A stretch of 63,414 bases of DNA, counting the filler, from Dugesia japonica (lineage: Eukaryota), in assembly GCA_001938525.1 (NCBI GenBank). It is 5 parts of 5 records of this genome, joined end to end, with 100 filler letters (N's around TTAATTAATTAA, not from the genome) between each part and the next. Parts side by side here need not be neighbours in the genome. Positions count along the whole stretch, not along the records: positions 12,094 to 27,423 come from MQRL01538175.1; positions 27,524 to 37,154 come from MQRL01615878.1; 3 more parts are not named here. The stretch is one strand, 5' to 3'. The position numbers and the translations under genes are program-made. Below, in pieces: positions 18,691 to 27,716 of the stretch (positions are counted from its first letter, which is position 1; each line of letters starts with the position of its first letter). Under the pieces are notes generated by a model. That model ran no database searches and was not told the DNA's origin. It saw nothing but the letters and a program-made list of their open reading frames with translations.

Positions 18691-20266
18691 CTCATTTAAA
18701 AGATTTTTTATATCAAATATATAAAGATAAAAATTATGCTTAAGCTTGCTATTTAGCTAATAAAATTCCTGGCCAATATCCTTATTTATTATATATTTAC
18801 AAGAGAAGACTATGTTATTATTAATCAAAATCATGATAAAATTAGTACTTCCTAGATAAAGATTTAGAATTTGATAGATCAGTTAGAGGTGATGAAAATA
18901 TAAATGGATTTATTTATGATTGTTTTTGTTATAAACCGAAAAAACTAACTGCTGATATAAATATTAACAAAGTATTACAGACTTTAGTTAAAGGTTATAA
19001 TATACAAACAAGTATAATGCGTGAAGCAGATAAGGACTCAGATAAAGTCAAAGGACAAAACTCGGAGTATTTTATTACAAATTCAAAATAGTAACAAATA
19101 AAATATTAAAANCTAGAGAATACTTTTGTGAACAACAGGTACAATTTACCTAGATATAAAAGAGACAAATATAATCAAATAATACATCATATTTATTTCA
19201 TAAATCTAAGTAGCTCTAACAATTACGTATTAAAGAATTTTAAAAAAATTTATCATTTTTATCAAATAAAATAAAACATAAAAAGATTCATAGAAGATAG
19301 AAAACATTGATAATTATGGAATAATTATTAATGGAACCTTTACTCATAATAGACCATATAATAATGGAAACTTTTATTTGATTTACCTAAATTTACATTA
19401 AATTAACATATAATAGAAATAAACTCACCATTTTGAAATTATCCATTTTTAATTCTCCATTTTTAATTTTAAATGTAATTAACAAAATAAGAAATTTAAA
19501 AATCAATAATATATTGATTTTTTAATTTTAATATCTTAAATGCATTTAAAATTAAGAATGCTAATTCATTATCATAATTATAATAATTACAATTATGATA
19601 ATTTAAATTAAGTAATCAATATAATTATTGATTTTTAAATTTCTTTTTATCATAGTTGTAATTATTATAATTATGCTAATATGAAATGAATAAAACATAA
19701 ATTTTGAAAAATTTGTTTTTTACATAGTTAGCGAGTATTTACTTAGTTACCATGTCTACTTTGTATTATTTACATAGTTACGCTATGCGGGAGAGGTTAT
19801 CTATGCTTTATGTTAGTGGTTTGAGTAGTTTAAAAAATTCCTAGACACGCGATGCGTTGTTGCATCCTACTTGCATCCATATTGCATACCTATTGCATTT
19901 ATTGAAATTCCGTGGCATATGTTGCTGTATTGCATTCATATGGCAAAACTATCGCATATATTTATGGCGGGAAATCCAAAAAAATATTTTGTGGCGAGAA
20001 ATATAGAAAACATTTATTTTTTGGCGGTAAATTAAAAAATTTCTCAGGAGCATGATTTTCATCGAATGTTGCATCACTTTTTCAACCCATTTGCATGCCT
20101 ATTTCATTTATTAAAATTCATAGCCACGTGTAGCTGTATTGCATTCATATTGCATCCCTATTGCATTCATTATTAAAAAATTGACATAGTCTTTATATTT
20201 ATGTATCATTTAGAGCAGTCTTGATATTTTTTGATATTATTGCAAGATATTGGGCAGTCTAAAATT

Positions 20267-21377
20267 CAAAGAGGGGAGTCTTTGGGGTATTTACATGATA
20301 AAATATATCTATCAAATAAACGTCAAAGAGAGGAGTCTTTAAAATATTTCAATTATCAAATATTTCTATCAAAAAAAAACTTCAAAGAGGGAGTCTTTGG
20401 GAAATTTACATAATAAAATATTCAAATTAAATCTTTTCTATAAAAGAAACATATTAGTCATGCAATTTTTCTATAAAAAACACATTAATATGCTATTGTT
20501 AATAAAAAAAACCTCAATAGTGGTGAAATTTTTAATAAAAAATTTCATTGGAGGTGCAATTATTAATAAAAATGATAATTATTATTTAAAAAAGATTTAT
20601 GTTTTTATGATTTTTATCATGTAAATATCCGAAAATCTTCCCTTCTTTGGCTTATTTAATACATATATTTTATGATGTTAAAATTTTAGGCTATTCGAAA
20701 CATATACAAAATATCTTAAAAAAATGTCAAGACCCCAAATTCTTTGTATAAAAAAATCAGTTTTCAAGTAAAAATGCAATAGAAATACTATATGAATGCA
20801 ATACAGCAACAAATGCCTAGAAAGTTTATTAAATGCAATGGATATGCAATAGGAATGCGGTAGAGATGCAATAGAGATGTAGTAGAGATGCAGTAGAGAT
20901 GCAGTAGAGATGCAAAACACATACACTGAAAATCATGCTCATGATAATTTTTTTAATTTCCCACTTTTTTTAATTTTTTGAAACTCAACAGCTGCCATTT
21001 TGATTTTTTAAAACTCATTATAGCCGCTATTTTAAGCTCTTAAAACGCAACAAAGCTGCCATTTTAAATTTTTTAATTCAAAATAGCTAACATTTTAAAT
21101 ATTTTTACTCAACATAGCCTTTATTTTTAATTTTTAAAACTACATATAGCCACCATTGTGAATTCCTAAAACTCAACATAACCGCCATTTTGAATTTTTA
21201 AAACTCGACATAGCCACCATTTTGATAAAACCTTAAAAGTCAGCCGGTGCTCTACAAATTGCATTGTTAATGAGATTTTTTATTAAAAATTGCACTGTTA
21301 ATGAAACTTTTATTAAAAATTGCACCGTTACTGAGATTGTTTTTTTAAAATTGCATTGCTAATGTGATTTTTATGGT
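20267..21377. repeat. Internal repeat block: 3x ~60-bp CAAAGAGGGGAGTCTTT unit; two inverted 4x30-bp arrays (20437-20566 and 21257-21377); inverted TIR subrepeat with GCAGTAGAGAT tandem (20770-20945); 8x ~31-bp GCCGCCATTTT array (20980-21225)
   Basis: Repeat units read directly from the sequence. Confidence 0.85.
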
Positions 21378-21574
21378 AAACGATCTATGTTTATTATCAT
21401 TTTACTGAAAAATTTATATTTCTATTTAAAATTACATTTTTTCATTCGTATTGCATCAACTTATTATTTTAATGCACACATATGCCTGTTTTGATTGATT
21501 AATTAAATCATATCAAGAGCAATGTCATCATCATTTTTGTTACAATTAAAATACAAATTTACAAAGCTCTCAAA

Positions 21575-25000: not shown

Positions 25001-25803
25001 ATGTAATACTGAGCTTCAGAAAATTACTACAAACTGCTAAACAACAGTTTGTATGGGAAATCGGTGGAAAATTTAAAGAAAAAAATGAATTTGCGCTTAT
25101 GCAATACTAGTAAAAAGCTGGTAACATATGCTTCTAAACCCAGCTTTCGGAAATCCACCAAGATTGCAGAGAACCTGAAAGCAGCTTTGATAAATAAGAA
25201 GTCAGTATGTTTAGATCATCCAAGCTACATTGGCCAATCTGTACTTGACTTGAGCAAATAAGAAATGTACCAGCTACAGTACATCGAGCTAGAAAAGTAC
25301 AGAAAAGAAGAAAAATATAGTATTAATATTGTAGCTGGCGATACTGGCAGATTTTTTCTAGAGTTGGTGAATATAAGTTTAGAATGACTTACCGGATTGA
25401 TGAAGAAAGACGGATTATTAGATACTCCAAACTATAGTAAATATCATCTCTTCTATAGTAATCAGTTGAATTCTGTCATTGGTAAGTTTAAAGACGAGAG
25501 TAAGAGGAAGAACTATTTTGAATGGATATTCTTACGTCCAAAATATTAGAACTTGCTTTCTGAGAAAGAAACAATGAAAGCAAAAGGCGAACATTAAAAA
25601 ATAGCAGTATCAACCATCAAACATATGTTGACTGCTATAATTATGATGAAAGGGTCTCAGCTGAACAATTTCAAATTCTTTCTATAAACCATTTACTGTT
25701 TAGCTTAAAATCTAAGAAAATAGCATTAATTAATAGTGATGATAAAAGATATTGGACAGAAAAAAATAAAATTGTACCATATGGACACTATAGTATCAAA
25801 TAA
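22040..25803 (+). pseudogene. polB: Protein-primed family B DNA polymerase (Polinton-type) with N-terminal vOTU-like domain and EndoVII/HNH-like insert; fragmented
   Basis: NIKKEDNKCFIYSILA...YHY (vOTU-like Cys/His); PFVVYADCES (Exo I); CYLC..DHDHFTG; FHNLRGYDLHH; FFEGGIRGG; YIDINNLYGWAFSQKLP; KLLNNSLYGKSVEN; AGDT; GKFKDE; KAKG; DDKRYW..PYGHY; stop at 25801-25803. The 5' start is approximate. Confidence 0.92.
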
Positions 25804-27716
25804 TACATTTTCTTATAGAAAAACTGGCAGCATTTCAAAGGAATAATTTAAATAATGTATTAAATCATTTTATTTTATATATATATATATATATATATAT
25901 TATCATGTAAATTAATTTTAATTTAATTTTAGACTGCCCAATATCTTGCAATAATATCAAAAAATATCAAGACTGCTCAATATCATACATAAATAAAAAG
26001 ACTACCTCAATGTTTTAATAATGAATGCAATAGGAATGCAATATTAATGCAATACAGCAATGCATGTCTATGAGTTTTAATAATAGCAATAAGCATGCAA
26101 TAGACATGCAATTAAGTTGCAATAGTGATGCAACACACATTCATTGAAAATCATGCGCCCAAGAATTTTTATAATTTCACGCCAAAAATAAATTTTTTAT
26201 ATATTTCTCGGCAAAAAATATTTTTTTGAATTTCCTGCCAAAAATAAATGCGAAAAGTATCCAATATAAATGTAATACTGCAACACATGCCTGAGAATTT
26301 CAATAAATGCAATAGGTATGTAACTCAGGTACCATAAGAATACAACACACATACACTGAAAATCACGTGCCTGGGTATTTTTATTGATAAATACAATAGG
26401 TATGCAACTCAGATGCTACAAGAATGCAACACACATACACGGAGCATCATGAGTCTGAGAATTTTTAATAAATTTCCAAACAAAAAATTATTTTTCTTTA
26501 AATTTCCCGCCACAAATACATGCGTTAGGTATGCAATATGAATGCAATACATGCCTTGGAATTCTAATAAATGCAATAGATATGCAGCTGAGATGCAATA
26601 GAACAACAAATGTCTGATAATTTCAATAAATGCAATAGGCATGCAACTCAGATGCAATACAAAAACACGTGCCTGGGAATTTCAATAAATGCAATAGGTA
26701 TGGAATACGGAAGCAATGGGGATGCAACACCGCATCACGTGTCTAGGAATTTTTTAAACTACTCAAACATATAACAAATAAACCCTCTCCTGCATAGCGT
26801 AACTATGTAAATAATACAAATTAGACATAGTAACTAAGTAAATACTCGGTAACCATGTAAATAATAAATAAAAGTTTAAAAATTTATATTTTATTTATTT
26901 CATATTAGCATAATTATAATAATTACAACTATGATAATAAGAAATTAAAAATCAATAATTATATTGATTACTTCATTTTATATAAATTAGCATTCTTAAT
27001 TTTAAATGCATTTAAGATATTAAAATTAAAAAATCAATATATTATTGATTTTTTAATTTCTTATTTACTTAATTGCATTTAAAATTAAAAAGGGAGAATT
27101 TAAAAATGGTGAGTTTATTTCTTTTATAAGTTAATTTAATGTAAATTTAGGTAAATCAAATAAAAGTTTCCATTATTATATGGTCTATTATGAGTTAAGG
27201 TTCCATTAATATGGTCAATTTTGTTTAAAGGTTCCATAGCTATATGGTCTATAATATTTAATGGTTCCTTTAATTTGGTCAAAGATGTTTAATTTTTGCT
27301 AAATAATATAAAAAAATGTCATGTATTGAATAAGTAACAGTTGTCGTAAAATTCCTGACCATTTTGCGGATCTAAGTCTAGTCAACTATTGACGATGATG
27401 ACTGATTGTTTTTAAAACAATTGNNNNNNNNNNNNNNNNNNNNNNNNNNNNNNNNNNNNNNNNNNNNTTAATTAATTAANNNNNNNNNNNNNNNNNNNNN
27501 NNNNNNNNNNNNNNNNNNNNNNNCCAGAGTTTTGCAGGAAAAAAATTGAAAACATAAAATTGCTAGAGTTTTTTAAACTAACATTCTACTAATAATACAA
27601 CCAATTAATTGATAAATAACTAAATTCAATTCTTCTATTTATTGAGCATTATGCATTTTGAGACGATTGATTATCATTATCGAATAAAAGTAATTTATAC
27701 GTGTTATACTCCATAC

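Follow-up and report, generated by a model that had tools for sequence, protein, structure and literature searches.

How did a polymerase gene of the Polinton type (pPolB) come to lie alone between long inverted arms in the genome of Dugesia japonica, and is this arrangement an accident or a unit with a history of its own? The window analyzed here, a stretch of 63,414 nucleotides joined from parts of five records of assembly GCA_001938525.1, contains such a locus in the part derived from MQRL01538175.1 (positions 12,094 to 27,423). Our preferred reading, with a probability slightly better than even (roughly 0.55), regards the locus as a copy, now decayed, of a recurring, helper-dependent TIR-pPolB-TIR offshoot of Polintons, which likely spread with a working polymerase and a borrowed integrase. 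Polintons are regarded as ancestors of linear plasmids and of the segmented bidnaviruses, and to our knowledge intermediate forms are scarce; a decayed offshoot, if true, would constitute a halfway form between virus-like Polintons and linear plasmids.

Structure of the locus

Self-comparison of the window confirms the paired inverted arms around a lone pPolB that the initial annotation had described: positions 19326–19935 and 26652–27211 are 83.6% identical, and positions 19882–20269 and 25922–26323 are 82.6% identical. With gaps left out, 97 of 943 aligned bases differ between the left and the right arm. The space between the arms is occupied only by repeats, a leader, and polymerase pieces, and no integrase, ATPase, or capsid match was found there, as had been noted.

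The limits initially assigned to a 7.9-kb unit (19326..27211) proved wrong at both ends. The right terminal inverted repeat (25922..27423, with a 31–33-bp array at 27163–27293) stops neither at 27211 nor with the subrepeats near 27282, where it had been thought to end, but runs on until the contig breaks off at 27423. Other copies continue the common sequence for several hundred bases more, up to an end in ...CACTACT. The left terminal inverted repeat (19326..20269), which contains internal palindromes (e.g., 19486–19648), has lost its outer part, as suspected: it is broken off at 19326 inside a 31–33-bp repeat array, and other copies extend outward. Without these cuts, the unit would measure about 10 kb. 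Neither terminus is present in the window itself, nor any TSD, in agreement with the initial annotation, but the former absence does not hold for other copies. The terminus ...CACTACT closes the right arm of one of them (L233), and, judged by their sequence, the ends of these copies are 5′-AGTAG termini of the Polinton type, i.e., canonical Polinton ends. No contig of this type carrying both termini was found, and hence no 6-bp TSD was seen.

Next to the left arm are the inner TIR, composed of 57-bp and then 31-bp repeats (20261..20600) and mirrored at the right end in other copies, and a right-arm-like piece in direct orientation (20601..21380), with a 32-bp repeat array at 20981–21225 and 31-bp repeats at 21253–21380, which forms the usual junction on the upstream side of the polymerase-only unit. 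Downstream of the gene, comparison with other copies reveals a stub of the 3′ region followed by (TA)n (25804..25921); the window copy lacks the remainder of the 3′ region, along with the right TIR's inner 31/57-bp repeats. The flank outside the unit contains a minus-strand relic of another pPolB, which is more distantly related (16801..18324; tblastn E = 3e-16 to P0057).

The polymerase gene and its leader

The pPolB region (22170..25803, plus strand) was identified by tblastn to homologues, Pfam searches with single fragments having given sub-threshold matches only. It spans residues 120–1229 of a 1242-aa homologue bearing PF03175 and PF02945, and in this sense is equivalent to full length, as had been claimed, but with 11 in-frame stops and 10 frame segments (nine frame changes) it is a pseudogene. 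No intact copy of the polymerase-only unit was found in our searches. A zinc-finger-like N-terminal piece (22025..22141, plus strand) weakly matches the N-terminus of P0010 (tblastn E = 0.18), while the homologous exon of one-piece relatives matches at E = 2e-7; about 50 nt of other copies are absent directly upstream of it. Of the two modules initially noted within the polymerase, the vOTU-like domain (22787..23371, plus strand) is supported by its predicted fold (pLDDT 84), the best 16 structure matches of which are all OTU domains (top match: Z 6.8, rmsd 3.5, 95 aligned). The DHDH/EndoVII-like insertion (23785..23850, plus strand) is matched weakly (PF02945, E = 0.029, below the cut-off); PF02945 is present on 26 of 65 homologues.

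Compared with autonomous Polintons, the unit thus retains a pPolB with an N-terminal vOTU, though in a broken gene, and long TIRs with 5′-AG/AGT termini (the arms in the window, the terminus in other copies only). Integrase, ATPase, capsids, and protease are absent between the arms and from 25 of 26 informative contigs.

Upstream of the gene, an alignment of 14 copies outlines a micro-exon leader (21575..21857, plus strand) with exons of 45, 45, and 49 nt after a short first exon. The splice signals are kept (GT at 21761 and 21858, AG at 21807), the leader occurs in one to three tandem units among the 14 copies, and one donor site is altered in the window copy. Hence, the "tiny spliced ORF" of the initial annotation does consist of GT/AG-signaled micro-exons, but these likely form the 5′ leader or exons of the polymerase transcript. 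No splice joint was found in RNA reads aligned at 85%, the reads being few and mostly less than 90% alike.

Recurrence and probable origin

Polymerase-based searches yielded 26 informative contigs besides the window, whose upstream sides were tallied by hand. The arm or arm-side repeats lie upstream of this polymerase type in 15 contigs (the arm itself in 7 of those), two more have an upstream leader in common with L096 and L102, where it is followed out to the arm, eight have unrelated DNA, and one has a capsid-module gene across an N gap. Downstream, 31-bp repeats or the arm are reached at 9 of the 16 loci with at least 500 nt, and a capsid-module gene at none of the 16. The ordered junction of arm, 57-bp, 31-bp, and 32-bp repeats, leader, and polymerase is repeated in copies that are 10–15% apart. 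The polymerase-only unit between inverted arms therefore exists in many copies, it has multiplied as a unit with junctions recurring on both sides, and its layout is not a one-off deletion. The term "deletion derivative", suggested initially, fits, provided that it denotes a lineage that was amplified and has a polymerase type of its own, and not a single event.

At least two different left junctions exist among the copies, and in L095 and L096 (and in L102 via its match to L096) an inverted copy of the 3′ region is located on the left side. The likely origin is a complete element whose left part was overwritten by a copy of its right end, possibly by a template switch during strand-displacement replication. 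The polymerase was likely still working while the element spread; the unit may have replicated itself as linear DNA of about 10 kb, with integration, and perhaps packaging, provided in trans by complete Polintons with related ends, and inserted copies would then have decayed neutrally. The arm mismatch of about 10% matches the divergence between copies (9–12%), as would follow from arms that did not yet differ when inserted.

Polymerase lineages and selection

In the polymerase tree (FastTree, 57 rows, nine short rows dropped), the gene nests among Polinton polymerases as a sister to capsid-linked ones. The sister clade C consists of capsid-linked polymerases from the same genome (support 1.0), and the identity to the capsid-linked Polinton polymerases of this genome is about 82%. 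All 13 arm-upstream copies are 84–91% identical to the core group, the node uniting them having a support of 0.23, and all 28 capsid-linked polymerases are 62–84% identical to it; among all those sampled, the capsid-linked polymerases form, by this comparison, lineages separate from this type. Two contigs, L237 and L188, fall within the cloud of the polymerase-only lineage (A) on a long branch, one of them with left-end DNA of a capsid unit upstream, and a search for a parent via this branch returned only these two contigs above 90%. In L235, this polymerase type is joined to a TBP-like gene over a gap of about 190 N; the TBP family concerned was rejected as the parent, as it carries a different polymerase (68–71% identical). 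The contigs L235, L237, and L188, together with the poorly supported node, speak against the preferred reading.

The columns splitting A from C, counted with the corrected frame border, are distributed as 40/24/104 by codon position (p = 4e-14), which argues that the split between A and its nearest capsid-linked lineage occurred under purifying selection. The stem, divergence, and shared-versus-singleton counts were made with one frame border about 45 nt off: changes on the A stem, polarized with an outgroup, amount to 9.7/7.1/29.9, and third positions are enriched among shared variants relative to singletons in 43 A copies (p = 0.004) and in 11 3′-arm-linked copies (p = 0.0015). These patterns suggest that the polymerase may have been under purifying selection while it was polymerase-only, but against this the signal is weak in the copies linked to the arm on the 5′ side (p = 0.053 and 0.12, see below). 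The stem signal may stem from an unsampled one-piece parent.

Tentatively, the unit may have been a long-lived Polinton satellite that replicated itself as linear DNA of about 10 kb. Its pPolB would have been selected without a capsid or integrase gene, while helpers supplied integrases and capsids. If so, this genome would record, together with a mirror-image capsid-only unit, a Polinton splitting into modules, the polymerase exchange behind near-identical capsid genes being part of the same split, and with it the transition by which a virus becomes a linear plasmid or a segmented virus. With a polymerase-only lineage beside helpers and a capsid-only lineage, reduction by end copying and trans complementation would become testable from sequence. 

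It is less likely than not that the polymerase was mere cargo, i.e., that a one-piece Polinton with this polymerase produced the selection signal and the deleted form multiplied wholly in trans as a passive derivative, in which case the family would be large but ordinary and non-autonomous. Such a history would fit the star-like tree with near-equal within-core divergence at the three codon positions (0.091/0.090/0.120), the weak signal in the 5′-arm-linked group (split columns 2/3/6, p = 0.12; shared versus singleton variants, p = 0.053), the contigs L235 and L237, the biased sampling of one-piece elements, and the capsid unit described below, which demonstrates for this genome that defective elements can be amplified in trans. 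However, the 26 informative contigs provide no clean link to a capsid, protease, integrase, or ATPase gene, while sister lineages are readily linked; the multiple left junctions and the third-position excess on shared variants within A (2/0/7, p = 0.008) also disfavor it.

Complete Polintons and a capsid unit

Complete Polintons with related ends are present in this genome. L362 carries TBP, ATPase, integrase, minor and major capsid, protease, and polymerase genes in one piece, and arm and outer-arm matches of 71–82% adjoin the one-piece copies L205, L414, and L422; the polymerase-only unit has the same terminus motif as the complete elements. Of the refutation proposed initially, that other copies with these TIRs carry the full gene set, half holds: related ends do flank full gene sets, but these carry other polymerase lineages. 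Sampling around protease anchors covered 57 of 150 scored places, out of 3252 candidates, and leans towards one family. Among the module pieces, Pfam recognizes the ATPase as Pox_A32 (E = 0.003), the integrase end as Chromo (E = 3e-4), and TBP above the cut-off, and assigns no name to the pieces that we take to be capsid and protease from motifs and gene order.

A second arm-bounded unit (B; left end in L221, right end in eight contigs, the former mirrored at the latter, in line with end copying) contains capsid and ATPase genes and no polymerase. Since it has the same arms, it might complete a true two-segment Polinton as a TBP-ATPase-capsid partner, as in bidnaviruses, and a segment of a multipartite element was among the initial proposals. 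This is improbable, as the partner found does not supply all missing functions: at least about 625 nt of the integrase core are missing in nine contigs, and the protease is broken at one place, with its second half absent, in 12 contigs, so that the pair would mostly lack both enzymes. Moreover, third positions are hardly in excess in the capsid gene (0.128/0.103/0.112; p = 0.02 for shared against singleton variants), and one-piece helpers are present.

An assembly artifact, a one-off deletion, or two chance repeat insertions around a polymerase fragment would be very improbable. The assembly consists of 648,594 contigs, the arm is very abundant (1963 first-look candidates in a search with 19300–19860; summed contig depth near 19326 changing from <30 to 10^4–10^5), and the left arm resembles L002 (95%) more closely than it does the right arm of the unit. 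Nevertheless, the recurrent junction largely refutes this explanation, and a contig from one run extends across 19326 and covers 30 bases of the arm, one below the bridging threshold. Least probable of all is that a linear plasmid with an independent origin became integrated. The polymerase-only content between TIRs and the TP-vOTU-pPolB organization common to cytoplasmic linear plasmids (PMC11161782) would fit this, but the tree places the polymerase within those of Polintons from this genome, the ends are of the Polinton type, and the leader introns are spliceosomal-type. A free linear plasmid is likewise unsupported.

Relation to known systems

In the literature searched, with supplements and Repbase outside the search, no amplified polymerase-only or two-part Polinton was found. 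Animal Polintons/Mavericks (adintoviruses) resemble our unit in the vOTU-pPolB, the nuclease-like polymerase insertion, the long TIRs, and the 5′-AGTAG-type terminus, seen here in other copies, and intact vertebrate elements are described as intronless (PMC8097293, PMC8502044, PMC11161782). The window lineage differs from them in its lack of integrase, ATPase, capsid, and protease, its size of about 10 kb, and its micro-exon leader. Partial Polintons of C. elegans, treated as remnants, comprise pPolB1 and a TIR without integrase at 10 loci (PMC11414722); there, too, the polymerase adjoins a TIR, whereas the polymerase described here is flanked by arms on both sides, recurs in this layout, and constitutes a separate lineage. 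In bidnaviruses and the Drosophila Vesanto virus, polymerase units share terminal repeats with structural-gene units, but these are ssDNA viruses with non-integrated segments, whereas here the partner is defective and one-piece helpers coexist (PMC8502044, PMC8363768). Linear replicons that lack a capsid and descend from Polintons, or are linked to them, share this absence with our unit, but are extrachromosomal and carry further genes, whereas the window unit is chromosomal, spliced, and, on our reading, helper-dependent. Finally, copy-back defective-interfering viral genomes, in which one end is copied over the other to give extended inverted repeats and dependence on a helper, parallel the end copying, inverted arms, and helper need proposed here, but differ in that the window family is fixed in the germ line as hundreds or more decaying insertions.

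Structure and Limits of the Element

The element lies on a single contig (window 12094-27423) of the source assembly, an AT-rich genome of 854 Mb in 648,594 contigs. Self-comparison of the window confirmed inverted arms enclosing a pPolB gene, with an outer pair (19326-19935 vs. 26652-27211) and an inner pair (19882-20269 vs. 25922-26323) that are ~83% identical including gaps; without gaps, the arms differ by 97 mismatches in 943 bases. The arms bound repeat arrays, a leader, and pPolB. A further inverted pair (12571-12824 vs. 15393-15663, 78%) is present on the same contig, and Gypsy-like retroelement remnants, judged by eye from translations, occur elsewhere in the window (1457-7838, 35170-36212, 55483-58184).

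The limits 19326..27211 proposed in the initial annotation are wrong: in other copies, the arm extends outward past 19326 on the left and runs several hundred bases past the contig end on the right. The outer terminus of these copies, ...CACTATCCCACTACT or close variants, matches the 5'-(AGT)2 end of Mavericks, as described in passages of PMC8097293. The suspected truncation of the left end was borne out, as the arm is cut there and directly adjoins the remains of another, more distant pPolB (16801-18324, minus strand, best matching the homologous proteins P0057-P0064). On the right, the inner repeats of 31 bp and 57 bp are absent from the arm, as is most of the 3' region; with the missing parts added, the uncut unit is estimated at roughly 10 kb. 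No TSD was readable, since none of the examined contigs of the element's polymerase lineage (type A) showed both ends.

The window pPolB spans nearly all of a 1242-aa homologue and is broken by 11 stops across 10 frame segments. The assignment of a vOTU-like module (22787-23371) is supported by a good predicted fold and by OTU domains in 16/16 best structural matches, the best of them middling (Z 6.8, rmsd 3.5, 95 aligned). The proposed EndoVII-like module is seen in the family, with PF02945 present in 26/65 pPolB homologues, and is sub-threshold in the window copy. According to passages of PMC11161782, both features are already known in Polinton polymerases. In the leader (21575-21857), a 45-nt micro-exon and its intron form one to three tandem units among copies. 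A few oligo-dT reads in run X9 match 24000-25600; they stem from related copies of the polymerase, most are <90% alike, and most share one orientation.

Recurrence of the Polymerase-Only Layout

The arm, polymerase, ATPase-integrase block, and capsid gene are all abundant in the genome (1963, 3130, 10518, and 5588 first-look candidates, respectively, which are not copy numbers). Polymerase-based searches yielded 26 type A contigs with readable upstream DNA, tallied by hand. The arm or arm-side repeats lie upstream in 15 of them (the arm itself in 7); two have a leader common to loci L096 and L102, where it continues to the arm; eight have unrelated DNA, and one a capsid-module gene. Downstream, inner repeats or the arm are reached in 9 of the 16 loci with at least 500 nt, and a capsid-module gene in none of these 16. 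Arms on both sides were observed in L095 and L103. The left side of L095 and L096, and of L102 via its match to L096, is an inverted copy of DNA 3' of the polymerase, which points to one element end having been copied over the other.

Several loci fit this picture poorly. In L235, a type A polymerase lies behind a TBP-like gene, with an N gap between them; because this TBP family carries its own polymerase, 68–71% identical, in L362 and L316, the joint is likely, if unproven, to be a chimera or a wrong join. L237 and L188 nest within the type A cloud on a long branch, and the DNA upstream of L237 is a left end of the capsid-bearing unit described below; a search of the genome found no further copies of this kind. 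In the tree, support is low for the node that unites all arm-upstream rows. As the genome searches cover the best-scoring candidates, a rare parent of type A with all genes in one element could be missed.

Polymerase Lineages and Selection

All 28 capsid-linked polymerases are 62–84% identical to core type A, and the 13 arm-upstream copies 84–91%. Type A diverges from its sister clade C mostly at third codon positions (0.159/0.134/0.280), where most of the columns splitting the two also fall (40/24/104, p 4e-14). The type A stem alone is likewise biased (9.7/7.1/29.9), as is the portion of this stem that follows the split from the one-piece Polinton L110 (3.8/2.9/12.9). Hence, the polymerase was still functional after leaving its nearest sampled one-piece relatives, at which stage it may already have been polymerase-only.

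Shared variants are third-position-rich among 43 type A copies (p 0.004) and among 11 3'-arm-linked copies (p 0.0015), and borderline so among 14 5'-linked copies (p 0.053). The two 5' junction types are separated by a short split that does not reach significance (2/3/6, p 0.12). Among core type A copies, divergence is nearly even over codon positions, in keeping with decay after insertion.

Complete Polintons and the Capsid-Bearing Unit

The one-piece locus L362 contains, in order, a TBP-like gene, ATPase, integrase, minor capsid, major capsid, protease, and polymerase. Capsid and protease genes here and in other relatives are presumed from gene order and known motifs; Pfam supports TBP and, below cut-off, ATPase and a chromodomain. 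Many protease matches lead on to a polymerase (57 of 150 scored places looked at, a sample biased to one family). Capsid-bearing relatives carry the TBP-like gene (PF00352, 33.7 bits; e.g., L220:2609-2992, L100:2987-3253, L235:2071-2466) immediately before the ATPase; its subfamilies number at least two and are about 70% alike. Capsid genes 84–89% alike precede polymerases only about 66–80% alike (L201, L205, L110, L099, L053), suggesting that the polymerase module has been exchanged.

A second amplified unit (e.g., L203, L211, L215, L221) has the element's arms enclosing TBP, ATPase, and capsid genes without a polymerase. This unit suggested a two-segment virus, in line with the earlier idea of a multipartite element, a reading we dropped: breaks in integrase and protease are common to its copies, with the integrase core missing in nine contigs and the protease broken at one same place in 12, and its capsid gene has little codon bias. 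The unit is most plausibly a defective one, with a right end that mirrors the left.

Proposed Origin and Related Systems

Layout, recurrence, termini, lineage separation, and helpers are established. Beyond these, we propose that a complete element, while replicating by protein-primed strand displacement, underwent a template switch by which its left part was replaced with a copy of the right end. The resulting molecule would have retained both origins and the polymerase and thus could copy itself as linear DNA, while insertion would depend on the integrase of complete elements with related ends; many insertions, then decay, would have followed. The capsid-bearing unit would be the mirror product.

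In its workings the element resembles a Polinton derivative that depends on a helper, and it qualifies neither as an autonomous Polinton nor as one segment of a bipartite virus. A literature search found no paper on a Polinton lineage amplified in polymerase-only form, for which supplements and Repbase may hold entries, and passages of PMC6431247 and 10.1101/2023.08.22.554363 contributed nothing specific. The nearest published cases found, from passages of the respective papers, include C. elegans pPolB1-plus-TIR loci without integrase (PMC11414722), segmented bidna-like viruses (PMC8363768, PMC8502044, PMC11071296), and Polinton-derived linear plasmids (PMC11161782, PMC3671162).
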